From Candidatus Saccharimonadota bacterium (lineage in GTDB: Bacteria; Patescibacteriota; Gracilibacteria; BD1-5; UBA2023), in assembly GCA_042852035.1 (NCBI GenBank), contig BAAFHK010000001.1, forward strand, positions 240,001 through 272,000: a stretch of 32,000 nucleotides of DNA. Reading direction: 5' to 3'. The translations under genes were made by a program, and so were the position numbers. The notes below the pieces were generated by a model that was not told where the DNA came from, made no database searches, and saw only the letters and a list, made by a program, of their open reading frames with translations. Numbering within the stretch: the first letter of the stretch is position 1; the number at the start of each line of letters is the position of its first letter. Positions 3,747-26,125 of the stretch are shown here, one piece after another.

Positions 3747-5264
3747 TTATTTCTTTTTGTTCTTTCTGAAAATTTTCGATATTTTTGACTTTATTCGTAC
3801 CCCAAAAAAAGTGAAGCCCTGAGTGAGTCGATGGATCTTCTTTTCGAAAAATCCATGACTCTTTTTTTCCTCATTTCAGGACTTATTCTTCTTTTCTGAT
3901 CATTCTTTTTTCGTTGCCTTTTCAGGGCTTCCGAGATCTTCTTTGGTCCGGATGAGGGCATATTCTGTTGGTTTTTCTGGCACAGTGATATAGACATCGA
4001 CATGCCCACCATGAGCAGATTTCACCTCTTCACCCGAGAGTGAGTAGATTTTCTCGAGAGTAAAATCGACAGATTGTGTTGGGGAAATGAGTCTGAGCTT
4101 ATCTCCGACATCGATTCGATTTTTTACGATAATTCTTGCGATTTTTTCCTCCTTTGCGAGTGATGTAAGATTCTTTGGGACTTCATTGTCGGTTTGGATG
4201 ATTCCCGCCATTTCTTCCTCATGGAGTTCTTTATTTTTTTCGAAATAGATAGCTTTTTCTCCAGGGTTTCCGACCAGAAATCCTGGAGTATATCCACGAT
4301 TGGATATAGCAAATACTTCTTTCGAAAGTTTCATCGCATCGTACTCTATATTTTTCTCTACCGCATCGAGTGCTGGTCGATATGCGCGCCCGACTCAGGC
4401 GATATAATTCACCGTCTTACTTCGACCTTCTACCTTGAAGCTTACTACTCATGCATCAGCAAGTTCCTGCATATATGATAGGAGACAGATATCTCGTGAA
4501 TTCATGATGTAGGTTCCATATTCATCTTCATCGATTGGAAGCATTTCTCCTGGGCGTTCTTTTTCTTCGAGGTAAAATTCTCCCGTGAGTTCCTCATAGT
4601 CATCAGGTCGACCTGTCGAGTCATAGAGTTCCTCGGGTGAGGCGTCTTTTTTAAATACCTTATATTCCCAGCGACAACTATGGGAACAAGTTCATTGATT
4701 CGGATCACGGTGAGAGAAATAGTTCGAGAGGAGACATCGCCCAGAATACGCCATACATATTGCTCAATGGACAAAAAATTCAAGTTCGATATCTGGAACT
4801 TGCTCGTGGATTTCTTTCACTTCTTTGAGAGAGAGTTCACGAGAGAGTATTATGCGCTTCACTCCGAGGTCTCGCCAGAATTCTACTTGTGCCCAGTTAG
4901 TGTTGTTGGCTTGCACAGAGAGATGTATTTCTGCATTTGGGAAGTTTTTTCGCACGAGGTTGATGAGTCCAGGGTCGCTCATGATATAGGCATCAGGCTT
5001 CAGTGCTTCCATCTTCTCGAAGGCTTTCATAAAGGGTCCAATCTTCATATTGTGGGCGTAGATGTTTGCGGTGAAGTAGATTTTTTTCCCACGAGCATGA
5101 CAGTATTCGACCCCTTCCGCAAGAGTTTCCCAGGTGAATTGGTTTTCTCGAGCACGGAGAGAAAACATTGGCACTCAGGCGTATACAGCATCTGCTCCAT
5201 AGGCGATGGCGTATTTGAGCTTTTCGAGGTTACCAGCGGGCATGAGGAGTTCAAGTTTTTTCAT
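3747..5264 (-). CDS. Peptidase U32 family protein (YegQ/TrhP/RlhA-like)
   Basis: It starts MKKLELLMPAGNLEKLKYAIAYGADAVYAG and contains the family signature EFFVHGAICMAYSGRCLLSNYFSHRDPNQGTCSHSCRWEY. I checked every codon from 5264 to 3747. The former stop TGA 3900-3902 is followed by a 51-codon Lys-rich in-frame tail ending at TAA 3747-3749. Confidence 0.9.
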
Positions 5265-5584
5265 AAGTTGACAAATATAAAATAAAGGCTAAATTAATGG
5301 AACTTTTTTAAAATCACAATATATGTCATGAATTGAATGAGGAAGCCTTGGTGCAACACCAGATTCACAATTAAGGGATGTGCTTATTCAGGCATTTCCT
5401 CAAATGAGGGATATCGATAGCAAAGTACGGGATTTACCACAGGATGTAAGAGGTCGAATTCTTGATCTTATGTGTACTGGGCCTTTTCGGGAAGCTGATA
5501 TTTCTCTAACTGCAAGTGAAGAAGTTCTTAGTGCAGTTCGACAGGCCTATATGAATCACCTAAGAAGTCCAGCACATGGGCAAT

Positions 5585-5787
5585 AAAAAAATCGCACAGA
5601 ACTTTTGAAAGTAGAGTATCTGAAATCTTGAAATCGGAGCATGGATTGCTCGCCCCTCTCATGTGTCGCACCGCTTGGCGGATGCTCGCATTCGGGGGCA
5701 TGGATCGCACATAGTGCTTACACATCGTACCTCGCAATGACAGAATAGTGGGAACTTTCAAAGAGGGTTCTGCACGACTTCTCTTTT
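5585..5787 (-). ncRNA. Candidate ~200-nt rod-shaped ncRNA (6S-like architecture, class not assigned)
   Basis: A perfect -10 TATAAT (minus strand, 5799-5794) sits about 7 nt upstream of the predicted 5' end. The 5' arm (5783-5767) pairs with the 3' arm (5602-5586) over 17 bp, with 5 G-U pairs that would be A-C mismatches on the plus strand. A nested 9-bp helix (5762-5754 with 5612-5604) and a 6-bp helix (5747-5741 with 5622-5617) follow. The RNA ends in a U7 tract. The interior is GC-enriched and hairpin-rich, and I see no convincing ORF. Confidence 0.45.
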
Positions 5788-5924
5788 GGGCGAATTATAG
5801 AGAAAATTTTGTGAAATCAAGTTTTCTCTATTTTGCGTTTATAAACAAGAAACCCAAATCCCTAAAAGAAAAATTGCTATTATCTGGCGTCTAGTTATAG
5901 TAGTTTTGCTACTAAGTTACTACT

Positions 5925-6770
5925 ATGAAACGCAAATTTTCTTCATGGATTATTCTATTTATTGCTGTTGGTATTACTTTTTTTAGTATAGAAGAATTCT
6001 ATCAGACTCATGAGGAAAATACGCTTCCTTCACAAAAATTGGGAGTCTCTTCTGAATTAGTTCATCCTGAACCTCTTCCAAAAAGTGCATGACAACAAGA
6101 TTGTTCCATGAATGGAACATGGTTCCAAGAAAATGAACGTGAGGGATATCAGAGTTGACTTATTGATTGTGATCATGCTGTTTCATATAACCTACTTGAT
6201 GGAACTGTAGAGTCAATAACGGGAGCTTCAACTTTTGAAAAATGATATATTTCAGATGATAACGGGACATATTTTGCATTAAACGTAAAAAGCTGTTGAT
6301 GAGCTCCATGTGAATTTAGAAAGATATCTCCAAAAACCAGATTACAAATTATGAATAATTCATGAGTATTATTTGCGAGTGATGGAATCAATATCTTTTA
6401 TAATGGCATAATTCTGAAGTGAGCTACGAAAATATCAGATTTTATTGTGCTCAATGACACGGTTTGATGAGTGATATTTCGAAATTCTGATACGGTTTGG
6501 TTCGATGGGCAAGCTATAGAATGAGCTGATTCAAGAACATTTAAAATTATTTCAGGAAGTGAAGAGGGGAGCTCTTCGGTATTTGCATCGGATAAAAAGT
6601 ATTGCTATCATCTTTTATCGTATTGAGGTGATTCTGGCGTTATTCCAGAGTGTATTCCAGAGAATTTCCGTACCCTCTGAAAGGAATATTCCACTGATGG
6701 AAAAAGTGTATTCTTGCAAAATAGTAAAATCGAAGGGGCGAACCCACTTACTTTCAGGCTTCCACAATAA
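5925..6770 (+). CDS. DKNYY-repeat family protein, N-terminally membrane-anchored
   Basis: 281 aa with 14 in-frame TGA, all checked in frame. There is an N-terminal TM (WIILFIAVGITFF). Repeated units are of the type DKKYCYHL / GKSVFLQNSKIEGANPLTFRL / VWFDGQAIEGADSRTFKII. The stop is TAA 6768-6770. The standard-code ORF 6559-6774 is in another frame. Confidence 0.8.
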
Positions 6771-8864: not shown

Positions 8865-8890
8865 AGTATTTTTTATAGTGTTACATGAAT

Positions 8891-8944
8891 ATATTATGAA
8901 AATGTAATATAAAGTCAAAAGAAAATATTATGAAAATGTAATAT
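8891..8944 (-). promoter_or_regulatory. Two tandem copies of the palindromic operator ATATTATGAAAATGTAATAT; the proximal copy is embedded in the trx promoter
   Basis: Identical 20-mers at 8891-8910 and 8925-8944, 34 bp apart. On the minus strand the proximal copy lies inside TTGACT (8918-8913), a 16-nt spacer, then TAATAT (8896-8891), 27 nt upstream of the trx ATG. Each 20-mer is an inverted repeat, ATATTA-N8-TAATAT. Confidence 0.6.
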
Positions 8945-8961
8945 ATAGTGTTTTGAATTAT

Positions 8962-11537: not shown

Positions 11538-11921
11538 TTACTGAACTATCTTTACATTTTGTATACTATCCATACCGCCAACATCCCTTATATTCGTATA
11601 TCATGCATTTTTGAGAATGTTGTATGCAATAGCAGATCGTCGTCCACTACGACAATAGAGGTTCACAGGAGTGTTTTTCGGAATAATAGAAAAATTTCCT
11701 GCTTCAATATCTCCGAGTTTTACGTGCATGGCTCACTCGATGTGGCCAGCTGTCCATTCGCTATCTTCGCGGACATCGACATAGAGTACTGATTCCTTTC
11801 ACTGAGTCTCCGAAGAGACGGAAGCACTTGGGAGAGAGCTACTCGATCAAGCTGGGGGAGGGGAGTTGGTACAACTTGCGAGAGAAAGAAGGGCACCAAA
11901 GAGAAGAATATATTTGAGCAT
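11538..11921 (-). CDS. Rhodanese-domain lipoprotein (sulfurtransferase)
   Basis: 127 aa. The signal peptide has a lipobox (MLKYILLFGALLSLAS-C). Rhodanese motifs are VLYVDVREDSEWTAGHIEGA and the active-site loop YCRSGRRS. Confidence 0.85.
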
Positions 11922-11982
11922 AAAAAGAAATTATGGAGAGAACGGATGTTCCCGAAAACCCACCCAATTAGGGTTGGAAATA

Positions 11983-12768
11983 TTAGTGATTCATTTGTCC
12001 CATGCCATTTCCTTGTCCACCACCACGACGATTTCCTGATCCTGTAGGTCCACGACCATCACCATTTCCTCAGCCTTGGGCTCCAAAGGTTTGGAGATTA
12101 TTGGACTTGAGGAGATCAGTCATTTTGTATTTGAGGGGGCCAGTGCTGTTTAGTTCGCTGGCCGTCATATAGCGAGCATAGTCGGTCGTGACAATATAAT
12201 TATTTTCTACCGCGAGACGAAGAAATGCTCGAAGGTGATTGAAACTGCCACCACCGATATTTTCGAACACTCGGCGGACATCCGTATCTTCGACGGTTTT
12301 ATATTCAGAGAGGAGATGATCTATGTCTCCAACTTCTACCATAACTCAAGCTTCGATAGCTTCTGTGAGGCTTGTATCAATCATCTTTTTCAGGGTTTCA
12401 TAGGTACCAGAGTAGCTGCCATAGTCAGTCGGACGATCGATACTACGAGCATCGAGGAGGCGTCCAACCTGTTCTGAATGTTTTTCTTCCGAACTCACGA
12501 TATTCATCACTTCGGTGAACTCGGGATATTTTGCCACCATGAGGGTGTAGATGTCTTCTGCGAGACGTTCTTCGGAATAGGCATCCTTGAGAATGTTTTC
12601 GACTATTTTTGGATCAGTAGTTTGAGGGTCGGGGGCTTGTTTTTGATTGTTTGAAGCCACTGTTTGTGTTGGAGTTTGAGTCGAACTTGGTACTTTATTT
12701 TCTATACTAGAAAGAGTACAAGAGCTCAGAATGCAAGCAGAGAGTGGGAGAATTAAGAGGGCATTCAT
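11983..12768 (-). CDS. DUF2202 (ferritin-like) lipoprotein with a Gly-rich C-terminal tail
   Basis: 261 aa. The lipobox is LPLSA-C. Motifs are EERLAEDIYTLMVAKY, SSEEKHSEQV and the diagnostic GGGSFNHLRAFLR. Two TGA=Gly join ORFs 12346-12768 and 12070-12342 and add the tail GGNGDGRGPTGSGNRRGGGQGNGMGQMNH. Confidence 0.85.
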
Positions 12769-12786
12769 ATGAAAAATGGTTAATGT

Positions 12787-12806
12787 ATATTACAAAATTG
12801 TAATAT
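12787..12806 (-). promoter_or_regulatory. Third copy of the operator (perfect 9-2-9 palindrome)
   Basis: ATATTACAA-AA-TTGTAATAT, located 19 nt upstream of the DUF2202 ATG. It has the same ATATTA...TAATAT arms as the trx and arsR sites. Confidence 0.55.
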
Positions 12807-12847
12807 AATAACGAGTATAACATCTCAAAGTAAGAATTCGGAAAGAA

Positions 12848-13767: not shown

Positions 13768-13793
13768 ATTCGAAAAAAGTAATATGTGTATTT

Positions 13794-13821
13794 ATATTAT
13801 AAAAATGTAATATAATGTCAA
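13794..13821 (-). promoter_or_regulatory. arsR promoter with embedded operator (fourth copy)
   Basis: The 20-mer ATATTATAAAAATGTAATAT is at 13794-13813. On the minus strand it reads TTGACA (13821-13816), a 16-nt spacer, then TAATAT (13799-13794), 27 nt upstream of the arsR ATG. That offset equals the one at trx. The 32-nt block differs from the trx proximal block at 2 positions by my alignment. Confidence 0.6.
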
Positions 13822-13826
13822 AAGAT

Positions 13827-20913: not shown

Positions 20914-21273
20914 ATGTCACTTACAAAGTCACTTTATGCGACTATTGCAACTCTTTTTGTTGCTGAGAATGCTCTTGCTGCTGGAGCAGACACAATGTTT
21001 GGTCTTACAACTAAGGCTTCTGGAACAAATATTACTGGAGCAAATGGTACAGCGTGGGATGCTATTTCTAATATTATTAAGCAACTCCTTACTCTCGTTT
21101 CGATTATTGCCGTGCTCTATGTGCTTTGGGCAGGTTTTCAGATCATGACAGCAGGTGGTGATGAGGAGAAGGTGAAGAGCGGTCGAAAGACAATTATCTA
21201 CGTTATCGTTGGTATCGTTGTTATGTGGCTTTCATTCTGGCTCGTTTCCCTTGTTATCACTTCTCTTACATAG
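20914..21273 (+). CDS. Small two-TM secreted/membrane protein, TrbC/VirB2-type pilin-like
   Basis: 119 aa, intact. It has a signal-like N-terminus (ATIATLFVAENALAAGA). The first hydrophobic helix is followed by MTAGGDEEKVKSGRKT, then a second helix. This layout matches VirB2/TrbC-type pilins as I recall them from CPR genomes. Confidence 0.65.
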   Translation: MSLTKSLYATIATLFVAENALAAGADTMFGLTTKASGTNITGANGTAWDAISNIIKQLLTLVSIIAVLYVLWAGFQIMTAGGDEEKVKSGRKTIIYVIVGIVVMWLSFWLVSLVITSLT

Positions 21274-21315: not shown

Positions 21316-21365
21316 TGTCTTTTTCCTGATTTTTCCTATTATAGAGTGCATCTAAATGCAATACT

Positions 21366-24062
21366 ATGGCTTACGATCACTTACGGATAGAAAAAAAATG
21401 GCAGAAATTTTGGGAAGAAAATACCACTTTTTCGACTCCTACTATTTCTGAAAAGCCAAAAAAATATATTCTCGATATGTTTCCATATCCATCGGGGGCT
21501 GGGCTTCACGTTGGTCATCCGAAATGATATACTGCAACAGATATTGTATCTCGTTACTATCATGCAAAGTGATATAACGTTCTTCATACCATGGGTTGGG
21601 ATGCTTTTGGATTGCCCGCTGAAAACTACGCCATAAAGACGGGTACACATCCTGCTATTACTACAGCACAAAATGTCACCACTTTTCGCTCCCAGATGAA
21701 GTCTCTCGGATTCTCATATGATTGGAGTCGTGAAATAGATACAACCGATCCAGAATATTATAAATGGACTCAATGGATTTTTCTTGAACTCTTCAAGCGA
21801 TGACTTGCTTACGAACAAGATCTTCCTATTAACTATTGTCCAAGTTGTAAAACTTGACTGGCAAATGAAGAGGTTCTCGCTGATAATACCTGTGATAGAT
21901 GTGGGACTCGCGTAGAACGTCGCCCAATACGACAATGGGTACTCAAAATCACTGAGTATGCAGATAGGCTTATAGAAGATCTCGAGAGTCTTGATTGGCC
22001 AGAAGGAATCAAAGAAATGCAGAGAAATTGGATAGGGAAAAGTGAGGGATGTGAGTTTGAGATGAAAAAATCTGACGATCAAACAAAAAGTATTCGCGTC
22101 TATACAACCCGTGTAGATACAGTCTTTGGGATGACGTATGCTGTACTTGCTCCAGATCATCCAAGAGTTAGAGAATTTATTACTGAAGAACAGAGACAAA
22201 TTTGTGAAAAATATATTGAATGAGTTAAGTGAAAATCTGATCTTGATCGAACAAATGAAGGTAAAAGTAAAACGGGGGTATTTACCGGATCTTATGTGAT
22301 AAATCCTTATAATGGTGAATCAGTTCCCCTTTGGATTGCTGATTTTGTTCTTGGTCATTATTGAACGGGTGCTCTTATGGCAGTTCCTGCTCACGATGAA
22401 CGAGATAGGGAATTTGCTCATTTATATTGACTTCCTATTGTTCAAAGCGTTCAAACTTCAGTTCCATTTGATGGTTGATCCTGGAAAAAGGAATATGGAG
22501 AAGATGGTATAAGCTTGGCTCTTAATCTTCCCTCAAGCGAGTCTCGAAAAGCTCTTACTGAAAAAGCAGAAAAAGAAGGCTTCTGAGAAAAAAAAGTCAA
22601 TTATAAACTTCGTGACTGGCTCTTTTCTCGTCAGAGATATTGGGGTGAGCCAATACCACTCATCCATATTGCATGAGATGATTTTGATGCACTTCCTCGT
22701 ATTGCTGACATTTCAGAGGCAAAAGACATGAATATTGCTTATATTCTTGATAAGCGAGGGACAGATAAGCGGTGTAAAAATTGTACTTGTGGTGATGTTG
22801 GTTGTGTAAAGCTTATTATCGGTGGAAAATCCTACTCAAGAGTTTATGACGGAATCTACTCAAAGATTCTTATCGATCCAAATCTTCCTGTTACGCTTCC
22901 AGAAGTTGAAAAATATGAGCCAGCAGGAGATGGTCAATCACCGCTTGCGAATGTTCCGGATTGGGTAAATATTAAACTTGCTGATAATCTCAGTGGAAAA
23001 AGAGAAACCAATACGATGCCACAGTGGTGAGGAAGTTGTTGGTACTACCTGCGATATATGGATCCGAGAAATAAAGAGGTTCTCGCAAATAAAGAGGCTC
23101 TTGATTATTGGGGAATTGTAGACGAGTATGTGGGTGGCGCTGAACATGCTGTTCTTCATCTTCTTTATGCTCGTTTCTGGCATAAGGTTCTCTTCGATGC
23201 TTGAGTTGTTCCGAAAAATGAACCATTCCAAAAGCTTACAAATGTCTGAATGATTCTTGCCTATGCTTATGAGCGAGAAGATGGAGGCCTCGTAGCGGTT
23301 GATCTTGTTATAGAGAAAGATGGAAAATTCTATGAAAAAGAAACACAAAAAGAGGTGAAGCAAGTGGTGGCAAAGATGAGTAAATCTCTCAAAAATGTAG
23401 TCAACCCAAATGATATCGTCAATGAATATGGAGCTGATACCCTTAGACTCTATGAGATGAGTATGGCTTGATTTACCGATACGGCTCCATGGAATCCTGA
23501 GGCGATTATCTGAGTTCGAAGATTTCTTGATCGAGTTTATGCGAGTTTCACAGAGTGAAAGAATCAGGCTCGTGATGATATGAAAGCGATGAAACTCCTT
23601 CATAAAACGGTGAAGAAGGTAGGAGAAGATATTGAGGGATATAAATTCAATACTGCAATTTCAGCACTCATGATCCTCCTCAATGAATGAATCCCTTCCG
23701 ATCTCGATTTTCGAAAGGAGTGGAGAGAAAAATTTCTCATACTTCTTCATCCATTTGCACCACATATTGCTGAAGAGCTTTGGATGTTTGATCATATGGG
23801 AGAGCGACCGATTTCTATTTCCACCTTTGCATGGCCAAATTTTGATGAATTTATGCTTGTGGATGATGAAGTGACTATTGCGGTTCAGGTGAATGGAAAA
23901 CTTCGAGGCACTCTTACTTGTTTTAATGGAGTAGCACAAGAAGAAGTCTCGGCACTCGCTCATGCAGATGAAAGTATAGCAAAGTGGCTTCTTGGAAAGA
24001 TTCTCGTCAAAGAAATTTTTATTCCAAATAAAATGCTCTCAATCGTTGTACGAGACGAGTAG
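21366..24062 (+). CDS. leuS: Leucine--tRNA ligase
   Basis: 898 aa in one frame (2697 nt) with many TGA=Gly. It has the HVGH (HIGH) motif, [10 protein letters not shown] (KMSKS), and the conserved blocks [17 protein letters not shown] and [11 protein letters not shown]. The stop is TAG 24060-24062. Confidence 0.97.
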
Positions 24063-24075
24063 GATGATTATCTTT

Positions 24076-24103
24076 TTGACAATTTATGTAAAAAGAATAG
24101 GAT
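24076..24103 (+). promoter_or_regulatory. Sigma70-like promoter of the RNA candidate
   Basis: TTGACA (24076-24081), a 16-nt spacer, then TAGGAT (24098-24103), directly after the leuS stop. Confidence 0.4.
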
Positions 24104-24109
24104 TCCCAA

Positions 24110-24436
24110 ATCCACGCAGTGCTCTGCTGTCGTGGATGAGGAGCTGAACCCTACCGTTCAGAGAAAAAGAGGTGTTTCTTGGCTACTACCGATACCCCCG
24201 ATACCCGAAAGGGTACTACCGCAACTCAACCTCAGCGTCGGCGTGTCCCCAAAGGTCATGCCGCACTCCAGCACGACCTGAATCCTTGTTCACGTCGTGA
24301 CTCGGACCAAACCCCGATCTTCTGGGTTCAGGCATTCCATCATCCGGGTGCATTACGGAGGGATTGATTCGCTACGGCGAGCATCGGCTTTCTCGGAAGC
24401 TTACCTTCATTCTTTTGGCCGCCTTCGGGCGGCTTT
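24110..24436 (+). ncRNA. Candidate ~330-nt structured ncRNA, class not assigned
   Basis: A GC-enriched, ORF-poor segment bracketed by a promoter and terminators. The hairpins I could draw are:
- 24111-24136 (tccacg/cgtgga)
- 24144-24161 (ctgaac/gttcag)
- 24202-24215 with a GAAA tetraloop
- 24272-24299 (cacgac..tgaa/ttca..gtcgtg)
- 24310-24328 (aaccc/gggtt)
- 24418-24433 (gccgcc-UUCG-ggcggc), followed by UUU. Confidence 0.5.
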
Positions 24437-24447
24437 AACATTTAAAC

Positions 24448-24476
24448 AAAAAAACCTTCAGTAGAGAAGGTTTTTT
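24448..24476 (+). terminator. Intrinsic terminator (second of a tandem pair)
   Basis: A7, then the stem aaccttc / gaaggtt with a 6-nt loop, then T6. Confidence 0.75.
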
Positions 24477-24600
24477 GATTACTTTATAAATTACTATTAT
24501 AAATTCGTTTTGAAGTGTCAACTTCCTCTTATAGTAAAGATATTACGATGACACCTTATATAGTTTCATGAACGCCAAGAGAAAAAATGGAGAAAAAGTT

Positions 24601-24628
24601 TTGACAAATGTTTCTAAATACATACATT
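24601..24628 (+). promoter_or_regulatory. Candidate promoter upstream of the high-GC ORF
   Basis: TTGACA (24601-24606), a 16-nt spacer, then TACATT (24623-24628). It lies in AT-rich sequence just outside the compositional boundary. Confidence 0.35.
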
Positions 24629-24734
24629 AAGAAAATCCAGTTTGATTCAGCTCAGGCTGATCCAACTGGTGTCACCGCTCGTAGGGTGAGAAACCCCGAG
24701 TATCAACTGTCCCAATGGTCAAGAGGAGAACCCA

Positions 24735-25184
24735 ATGACCCGTACCCGAATGAACCTGGCGGCTCTGGCCGCACTCGCATCCTGCGCCGGCAACGCGACC
24801 GCCCACGTGCGTACCAAGTTCGACGTCGACACCGATCCCAAGAAGGGCATCTGCGCCATCAGCGATGGCACCGACGGCGCGATCGGCGGCGGCACCGGCG
24901 TGGTCAGCACCGAAGGCGGCGAGAACAGCAATGGCACCGGCGTGGTGAACCAGGCTGGCACCGACGGCAGCGCGATCGACGGCAACCAGCAGCAGATGCA
25001 GCAGGCCGGCGCCGCGAGCACCCAGGAAGGCGATGGCCGCACGTACGACGCCAGCGCGCAGCAGCAGGCCGATGTGAGCCGCGAAGGCGATGGCAACCAG
25101 CAGCAGGCCGAGATCCCGGTGGACCGTTCCGACACCCAGCAGGGCTGATGTCGAGGTGAAGGCAGGAGTGTGGTGGAAAGATAA
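24735..25184 (+). CDS. Compositionally foreign lipoprotein, low-complexity G/T/D/Q-rich (standard-code end 25148; code 25 end 25184)
   Basis: GAGGAG lies 6 nt upstream of the ATG. The signal peptide plus lipobox is MTRTRMNLAALAALAS-C. Third codon positions are almost all G/C. Internal repeats are GTGVV x2, EGDG x2 and NQQQ x2. There is no internal TGA. The terminal TGA 25146-25148 would be read as Gly here, adding GCRGEGRSVVER before TAA 25182-25184. The overlapping ORFs in other frames and strands look like typical high-GC shadows. Confidence 0.6.
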
Positions 25185-25205
25185 GTTCACGATCCACCTC
25201 CTGCC
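25161..25205 (+). other. GC-rich hairpin downstream of the foreign ORF
   Basis: The arms ggcaggag(t)gtgg and ccacctcctgcc form 12 bp with one bulge and a 20-nt loop. No U tract follows. Confidence 0.5.
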
Positions 25206-25358: not shown

Positions 25359-26099
25359 TTATAATGGTTTCAATTGAGCTTTTCTTATGCCAAGTTGCTC
25401 TGTGAAATTTCTTATCACTCCAGCATCAAGTGGTGTTTGAATGAGGGTGTTTCTGCTATCAGGTGAGGCATACCTCATGGCTGGTATTGCTCAGGAATAT
25501 GACGCAAGAATGGTAGGAAGTTCTCTCCTAAGTGCATCTCTATCCTTGAGGCTTCAATTTTTGATAGCCTCTTCGAGATGATTTGTGAGAGTAAGAAGTG
25601 CCACTCATTCAACATAGAGAATAATATGGGGAATTCTCATTTGCCGCCTTCATACGTATACCTCGTGCGACCATTTTCAATGATTTATTACCTTCTCATC
25701 GAGTCATCTTTCATTCATAGTGAAGTCAACTGATATATAGCGAACTCAGTTTCCGGTAGTTGCCTTAAGAATAGCGTCAGTATGGTTACGAACATCATCT
25801 ATAATACTACTCAGCCACATTTCATAAGAGACAATATTGTCAGATTTTGCTGCAATAAGCGCCCGAATTACTTGAATAGCTACCCACTCTGGAATTCGCT
25901 GATTTTTTATAATATAGGGTCAGCGCTTGTGTTTTATATCATCTAGTGCGTTATTTACTGCAAATGTTGCAAGTCCTTCTAGATCCATTGGTGAGACCCT
26001 TCTTTCCTGTCATCCTCATGCTGTGATTACTTTTCAGAGGTGTGGAAACATATCAACCCTTCATTGTTCCGCTCCAATTCATAGGAAGCGATTATCCAT
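25359..26099 (-). CDS. Hypothetical 246-aa protein (no family recognised)
   Basis: A single frame of 741 nt with about 14 TGA=Gly: MDNRFLGIGAEQGRVDMFPHLGKVITAGGGQERRVSPMDLEGLATFAVNNALDDIKHKRG... An in-frame TAA just upstream fixes the start. It lies 27 nt downstream of the cofD-like gene. Confidence 0.7.
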
Positions 26100-26125
26100 A
26101 CAAAGTTAGTTATCGAAATAAGTTC

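Follow-up and report, generated by a model that had tools for sequence, protein, structure and literature searches.

A probable lineage-specific small protein gene within a GC-rich, well-folding transcription unit downstream of leuS in a code-25 Gracilibacteria genome

The dual-function small RNAs SgrS/SgrT, RNAIII/hld, and SR1/SR1P combine structured UTRs with an embedded small ORF, and 5'-terminal stem-loops are described as stabilisers of mRNA in the 5' UTR of E. coli ompA and in the Bacillus aprE and ermC leaders. The unit of this study lies downstream of leuS at 24076–24476 (+ strand) of the window, by which we mean the whole 32-kb stretch of DNA that was analysed. It is like the dual-function small RNAs in size (~330–370 nt) and in layout, but it has no known pairing region or target and no Rfam match, and from a likeness of layout only we claim no membership of that class. 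RNase P, tmRNA, SRP, and 6S RNAs share with it a similar length and a GC enrichment in an AT-rich genome; unlike such housekeeping RNAs, it is missing on the contigs of the close relatives L081, L082, L084, and L085, and therefore no essential housekeeping RNA is located here. With the genes of small proteins (below ~70 aa) that have their own promoter and terminator, it shares a monocistronic layout, a Shine-Dalgarno sequence, and a short conserved ORF under purifying selection. In contrast to those, however, its predicted product, termed C1, belongs to an orphan family known from three members, all at one locus of one Gracilibacteria sub-lineage, lacks the hydrophobic segment of many small membrane proteins and type I toxins, and is encoded in a frame ending at a codon that is sense in the host. 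Based on the comparison of homologous loci, we consider 24076–24476 to be most likely a monocistronic gene for this lineage-specific small basic protein of 62 aa.

The genetic code is of importance for everything that follows. ORFs of at least 150 aa numbered 63 in the window under table 25 or 4 and only 18 under table 11, and leuS (21363–24062) contains 18 in-frame TGA codons, at whose positions six standard-code orthologues have Gly 48 times out of 106 and Trp not once. Since the long ORFs need TGA as a sense codon and the TGA codons of leuS align mostly to Gly, the genome (~38% GC) was assigned to code 25, with TGA as sense and mostly aligned to Gly. This is in line with the clade having no RF2 and reading UGA as Gly (PMC6851277, PMC8080830).

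A LeuS search placed the nearest relatives among Candidatus Gracilibacteria MAGs, and from a large protein collection searched with LeuS we obtained relatives with 75–89% identity, whose contigs were compared between leuS and cofD. All in all, the gene order S6-SSB-S18-pilin-leuS-[gap]-cofD-Band7-HrcA is conserved while the gap between leuS and cofD is variable: it is empty in L084 and L085, holds an orphan gene and a GC-rich cassette in L081 and L168, and both GC-rich cassettes in L083, whereas in L082 only a remnant of the C1 promoter is kept and the body is lost (2595–2660; TTGACA...AAAAAGAATATGAT). The C1 unit occurs in three related loci (window, L083, and L087) and is missing in L081, L082, L084, L085, and L168. 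Judged from this distribution, the unit is itself a part of the variable leuS-cofD island, standing beside a second cassette, C2, so that the comparison with islands that insert next to stable RNA genes, made in an earlier sequence-only reading of this DNA, has to be given up.

Two further orphan genes belong to the island, one of ~235–245 aa with a hydrophobic C-terminal tail and with TGA used as a sense codon, the other of ~250 aa on the opposite strand (L083 5150–5887, L081 8792–9496, L087 546 onward; window 25359–26105, - strand); neither gave anything significant in Pfam, PHROGs, NCBIfam, PADLOC, or the PDB sequences. Directly upstream of leuS, a small T4SS-pilin-like gene of the TrbC type (20914–21273) is kept in most of the related loci fetched, including some without cassettes, according to precomputed Pfam marks.

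No homologue of the C1 unit or of the adjoining high-GC segment was found at 80 leuS loci of GTDB species representatives (nhmmer and tblastn), and among 167 leuS loci searched by tblastn, homologues of the one or the other were present only in L083, L087, and L081. Scanning metagenome contigs with the C-terminal tail of LeuS yielded 80 loci, none with a cassette. For the C1 family, we used a degenerate pattern for the codons of GHAA..D.NPCSR; it matches the window, L083, and L087 but had no match in the JGI metagenome contigs, and therefore that collection does not contain this lineage. Distant-mode blastn against phages matched the 22-nt GC hairpin only and against plasmids nothing, a pattern scan of viral contigs for the 5' hairpin gave no match, and a repeat search of the window revealed neither a CRISPR array nor further copies of the C1 unit.

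Some other elements of the window were recorded on this occasion. A 27–33-nt AT-rich intergenic motif (ATATTATGAAAATGTAATATAA) with a palindromic core recurs at 8890–8956, 12783–12809, and 13790–13825, including a tandem pair, and looks like an operator site. At 1638–1682, there is a perfect 20-nt inverted repeat with a 5-nt spacer (ATAATAAAAATACGTTATAA / TTATAACGTATTTTTATTAT), and a patch of ~52% GC without Rfam match is located at 5590–5800 between the ORFs 3747–5288 (- strand) and 5916–6770 (+ strand).

L001, the closest GTDB representative (LeuS 71% identical), carries an unrelated GC-rich cassette, reaching from promoter to hairpin, ~700 nt downstream of leuS (11886–12520, 59% GC). Its TTGACT and TAGAAT have a (CTT)n run between them, perhaps a phase-variable promoter spacer, and the cassette also displays a 5' hairpin, a strong Shine-Dalgarno sequence, an ORF of 152 codons ending in TGA, and a hairpin after the ORF.

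The C1 unit opens with a sigma-70-type promoter at 24076–24103 (+ strand), composed of TTGACA (24076–24081), a 16-nt spacer, and TAGGAT (24098–24103) and identified by scan and by conservation. In our three-way alignment A3, the -35 hexamer is invariant in L083 and L087, and their -10 hexamers read TATCAT and TAAGAT. Six promoter-like matches were found in the scan against 3.3 expected, so that a match alone is not significant; the support for the promoter at 24076–24103 comes from its being conserved. Transcription would start near A24108–A24110. The body (24105–24440) has a GC content of 55% compared with 38.5% for the window, being one of only two such outliers in 32 kb. Both features, the TTGACA-16-TAGGAT promoter and the GC enrichment, had already been recognised in the sequence-only reading and were borne out here. 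Positions 4634–5062 of L083 are a clear homologue of the unit, with promoter, 5' stem-loop, and GC hairpin kept and the GC-rich body diverged, and on contig L087 the leuS 3' end is likewise followed by promoter, 5' stem-loop, Shine-Dalgarno sequence and ATG, ORF, GC hairpin, and terminator.

At the 3' end, the scan identified an intrinsic terminator at 24449–24476 (+ strand) with an 11-bp stem and a T-run; a hairpin with a T-run, though of different sequence, is found at the same position in L083 and L087. Because an A-run precedes the stem, this terminator can act in both directions. The GC hairpin upstream of it (24417–24434, + strand; GGCCGCC-UUCG-GGCGGC) is of another kind. Its six G-C/C-G stem pairs do not differ among the three homologues, with G-U or G-C as the outermost pair. 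It is missing from the list of the terminator scan; its tail reads UUUAACAUUU in the window, and no U-tail follows it in L083 or L087 (CCCAACTCG and TCAATCTCG). Of the 3' end proposed earlier, a hairpin ending in U's followed by a second, canonical terminator, both elements do exist, but the former is no canonical terminator; its likely role is 3'-end protection or the binding of a protein. Between the stop codon of leuS and the C1 promoter (24063–24075), no terminator is present; in relatives without C1, a terminator hairpin stands directly after leuS. With no terminator in between, transcription from leuS probably continues through C1.

Within the unit, an ORF of 62 codons with a TTG start, (M)ATTDTPDTRKGTTATQPQRRRVPKGHAALQHDLNPCSRRDSDQTPIFWVQAFHHPGALRRD, extends from 24179 to 24367 (+ strand), its conserved frame ending with TGA at 24365–24367. 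It is contained in the mechanical ORF list. The earlier statement that there was no credible ORF on either strand is contradicted by the homologues, as the same ORF is conserved as coding in both of them. It is preceded by a Shine-Dalgarno sequence GAGG (24169–24172, + strand) 6 nt before the start, the homologues having AAGGA before ATG; across the three, the distance of GAGG or AAGGA from the start codon amounts to 6–10 nt. The homologous ORFs, L083 4736–4918 and L087 215–400, are both situated directly downstream of leuS, and the ORFs of the family comprise 60–62 codons. In L083, the frame after AAGGA-N6-ATG reads MPTEDETRKGTPTTSIQQQARRRPRGHAAVMYDRNPCSRGEQGPLFKFRVSHQGGPQRRD and aligns with the ORF of the window.

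In alignment A3, the start codons TTG, ATG, and ATG share one column, as do the TGA codons. Gaps inside the ORF are all of 3 or 6 nt, those outside of 1, 2, 3, 5, 8, 9, and 19 nt. Translation in the coding frame gives 26 invariant residues out of 56, the other frames only 15/54 and 13/54, and at half of the invariant residues (13/26) different codons are used. Variable columns are distributed over the three codon positions as 25/19/35 and pairwise differences as 19/16/32. With n = 3 sequences (window, L083, and L087) for all selection statistics, Nei-Gojobori dN/dS was 0.23, 0.26, and 0.47 for the three pairs at a dS of 0.65–1.6. We therefore regard C1 as probably coding, because of the aligned starts and Shine-Dalgarno sequences, the multiple-of-3 gaps, the synonymous differences, the excess at third positions, and the dN/dS of 0.23–0.47.

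An independently called protein agrees with this. In a HMMER search of 1.84 billion representative proteins, P0121 (61 aa, contig L087) was the only convincing match to the C1 peptide of the window (E = 3.8e-17, 64% identity), three weak ones being unrelated long proteins, and it was also the only match in 5.8 billion clusters. Gene callers mostly missed C1, which is uncalled in L083 and was called only on the ENA contig.

The C1 copy of the window is basic (8 Arg and 2 Lys versus 6 Asp) and hydrophilic, without signal peptide or membrane segment. Among the invariant residues are TRKG, RR.P.GHAA, D.NPCSR, P.F, H54, and the C-terminal RRD, as well as His27 and Cys37. Pfam, NCBIfam, PHROGs, PADLOC, and the PDB sequences gave nothing significant, and a relation to ribosomal protein L32, considered for the by-eye likeness RRR.P.GHAAL, was dropped for want of support from Pfam. 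AlphaFold2, run on a two-sequence alignment, returned a pLDDT of 56, no secondary structure, and no confident fold. The product is hydrophilic, probably disordered, and positively charged; as a working guess from its sequence, it would most likely act by binding a partner, either nucleic acid or a metal or protein ligand. C1 probably serves a host-interaction role of the leuS-cofD island, which also carries the predicted secreted protein C2. Its codons have a GC content of 0.66, 0.56, and 0.48 at the first, second, and third position, the last being moderately raised, and the GC enrichment of the unit would result largely from a protein rich in Arg, Pro, Gly, Ala, and Thr, together with this GC3 and the hairpins of the UTRs.

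The transcript as a whole is nevertheless conspicuously structured. None of 100 dinucleotide shuffles folds as well as the + strand (z = -3.97; - strand z = -2.2), and the homologous transcripts reach z = -3.59 and -3.75. A 5'-terminal stem-loop (24110–24137, + strand; AUCCACG...CGUGGAU) is predicted in all three homologues, with the outer 7 bp near-invariant and one inner pair changed from U-A to C-G. The second hairpin of the 5' UTR (24144–24161, + strand) pairs CUGAAC with GUUCAG in the window, CCGAGC with GCUCGG in L087, and CCGAG with CUCGG in L083, i.e., it covaries, both arms having changed with the pairing kept. Compensatory changes are found mainly in such UTR hairpins (n = 3 sequences). 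Between ORF and GC hairpin, the 3' UTR (24368–24416, + strand) is variable; it has a local hairpin at ~24387–24400, is poorly conserved, and shows indels that are not multiples of 3. Inside the ORF, the TRKG codons double as a conserved GNRA-type hairpin (window, ACCCGAAAGGGU; L083, ACCCGCAAGGGU). When, however, the coding sequences were shuffled among synonymous codons in such a way that the protein, the codon set, and the UTRs stayed the same, the z-scores of the three homologues were only -0.9, -0.7, and -2.1 (the last for L087), giving weak or no support for the coding sequence being selected for RNA structure. As the excess folding mostly vanishes under these shuffles, the structure lies in the UTRs and in sequence dictated by the protein.

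Taken together, the transcript is probably an mRNA that starts from the conserved promoter, has a 5' UTR of ~70 nt with the stem-loop and the covarying hairpin, and is translated from a Shine-Dalgarno sequence and a start codon whose alignment column is shared by three genomes. Its ends may be protected from exonucleolytic or 5'-end-dependent decay by the 5' stem-loop and the 3' GC hairpin. Transcripts would end at the hairpin and T-run of 24449–24476, and read-through from leuS would presumably reach the unit as well. Compared with the stabilisers of the ompA, aprE, and ermC type, the stem-loop of C1 stands 0–3 nt from the putative transcription start and is kept in all homologues, and the cassettes of C2 and L001 also have a 5' stem-loop like those leaders; for C1, a stabilising effect, like the transcription start itself, can be proposed by analogy.

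A second function at the RNA level is possible for the C1 transcript. It might be both the mRNA of C1 and a regulatory RNA acting through the 3' GC hairpin or the UTRs, as SgrS/SgrT or RNAIII/hld do. The ORF takes up ~57% of the transcript and leaves ~43% to the UTRs, the coding sequence is less conserved than the GC hairpin with its U-rich 5' flank, the L087 copy has some excess of structure against its synonymous-codon shuffles (z = -2.1), and RNAalifold pairs the Shine-Dalgarno region with a CCU-rich stretch of the 3' UTR in all three homologues (columns 96–99 with 362–365). On the other hand, neither a target nor a seed region was identified, three sequences have almost no power for covariation, and stabilisation of the mRNA ends explains the conserved hairpins equally well. 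We therefore rate a dual function as an outside chance, the simple mRNA being preferred.

Still less likely is a non-coding structured RNA, in which the ORF would be incidental to GC-rich sequence in a genome with two stop codons. The folding energies of all three homologues, the 5' hairpins that are conserved or covarying, the unchanged stem of the GC hairpin, and the double use of the TRKG codons as a hairpin would all suit such an RNA, and an open frame as such means little, code 25 leaving all three + frames open. Yet the coding signatures are specific to one frame, with dN/dS below 0.5, the start codons and Shine-Dalgarno sequences are aligned, and in two of the three homologues the structure of the coding sequence is no better than that of synonymous-codon shuffles, which led us to reject a generic structured non-coding RNA. 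Known families do not come into question either. At the gathering threshold, Rfam had no match in the whole window; with E ≤ 10 and permissive filters, 13 matches were obtained in 23950–24750, all of them chance or terminator-like, with RNase P (RF00010/RF00011, without covariance-model match at either threshold), tmRNA, SRP, and 6S RNA not among them, and ARAGORN found neither tRNA nor tmRNA. The sequence-only reading had failed to place the unit in any of these four families, rightly so, but the resemblance to CR-I/CR-V of RNase P that it noted is without Rfam support even at E ≤ 10. Of its structured RNA candidate, there remain the discrete unit from promoter to terminator and the conserved UTR hairpins; a stable non-coding RNA it is not, with ~57% of it taken up by a conserved ORF.

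Finally, a recent foreign import or a decaying pseudogene from a GC-rich standard-code donor, non-functional here, is hardly credible: GC content above the genome average, a frame that ends with TGA and has no internal TGA like a standard-code gene, and a position in an island variable among relatives would fit it, but no homologue was found outside this lineage's locus (in 1.84 or 5.8 billion proteins or in phage and plasmid collections), the ORF has stayed intact, with purifying selection evident between copies as far apart as a dS of 0.65–1.6, and promoter, Shine-Dalgarno sequence, and terminator are conserved.

The same question arises for the adjoining high-GC segment, cassette C2 (24601–25205, + strand), which starts ~125 nt downstream of the C1 terminator and consists of a promoter (24601–24628, + strand; TTGACA-16-TACATT), a structured leader, a Shine-Dalgarno sequence, an ORF (24735–25148, + strand), and a hairpin (25161–25205). 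The ORF encodes 137 aa with a lipoprotein-type signal peptide and ends with TGA; the leader of ~100 nt is 81% identical to that of L081. Its GC3 of 0.88 is far above that of leuS (0.28) and of the native genes (0.21–0.50). A profile search revealed a family of ~10 clusters, in which every member with fetched DNA is located in the leuS-cofD gap of related Gracilibacteria and no member belongs to a GC-rich organism with the standard code. Pfam, NCBIfam, PHROGs, PADLOC, and the PDB sequences held nothing significant. The copies differ by 20–75% at the protein level, with divergence down to 25–40% identity and a dN/dS of ~1, GC3 staying at 0.85–0.91. Judged from these copies, C2 is a lineage-specific, fast-evolving gene for a secreted protein, and its aberrant composition is actively maintained. 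The segment had been taken as foreign at first sight, but with no homologue outside the same Gracilibacteria locus, a recent import is not demonstrated.

A peculiarity that C1 and C2 have in common is the end of their frames. In all ten cassette ORFs with DNA (three of C1 and seven of C2), the conserved frame ends with TGA and has no internal TGA; the cassette ORF of L001, which belongs to no aligned family, also ends with TGA. Among ~109 Gly codons in eight cassette ORFs, TGA does not occur at all, compared with 35% of the Gly-position codons (GGN and TGA) in seven native ORFs of the window. At the conserved end of C1, no valid code-25 stop codon is present, the codon being TGA in all three homologues. 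With UGA as stop, C1 ends in ...HHPGALRRD; with UGA as Gly, it continues as ...RRDGFATASIGF.... For C2, the corresponding readings are ...DTQQG and ...DTQQGGCR.... The tails that code 25 adds to C1 are 25 (window), 5 (L083), and 60 (L087) residues long and are not conserved. For the cassettes, the next TAA or TAG follows 5 to more than 200 codons after TGA, and the tails are conserved in neither length nor frame; after the TGA, indels between the window and L087 break the frame, and in L087 the extended C1 frame runs past the terminator.

Code-11-compatible phages that are targeted by CRISPR spacers of Gracilibacteria/Absconditabacteria have been described to carry clustered different stop codons at the ends of their genes, by which both codes are served (PMC10746230). 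The cassettes resemble those phage genes in being tied to code-25 bacteria and free of in-frame TGA; in contrast to them (PMC10746230), they have no nearby back-up stops, are chromosomal, and are without phage genes or PHROG matches. In the literature searched, we found no description of such cassettes. The TGA ends may represent tolerated read-through with junk tails, context-dependent UGA termination, or decoding in a standard-code GC-rich partner. That C1 and C2 are "standard-code" cassettes, either decoded in a GC-rich host or prey after transfer of epibiont DNA or RNA or ended by context-dependent UGA termination, is speculative and appears rather unlikely to us.

Independently of that, the C1 gene as proposed here contributes an orphan family of small proteins that mostly goes unnoticed in standard gene calling, and corrects a plausible call of a non-coding RNA; what looks like a GC-rich, well-folding intergenic island in an AT-rich recoded genome can be a small gene. 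The cassettes also present chromosomal genes of a UGA = Gly bacterium whose conserved frames end at UGA and are internally free of it, with C2 keeping its extreme GC3 despite saturating divergence. Should decoding in another cell or context-dependent termination turn out to be true, this would bear on the manipulation of hosts by CPR episymbionts and on the strictness of codon reassignment.
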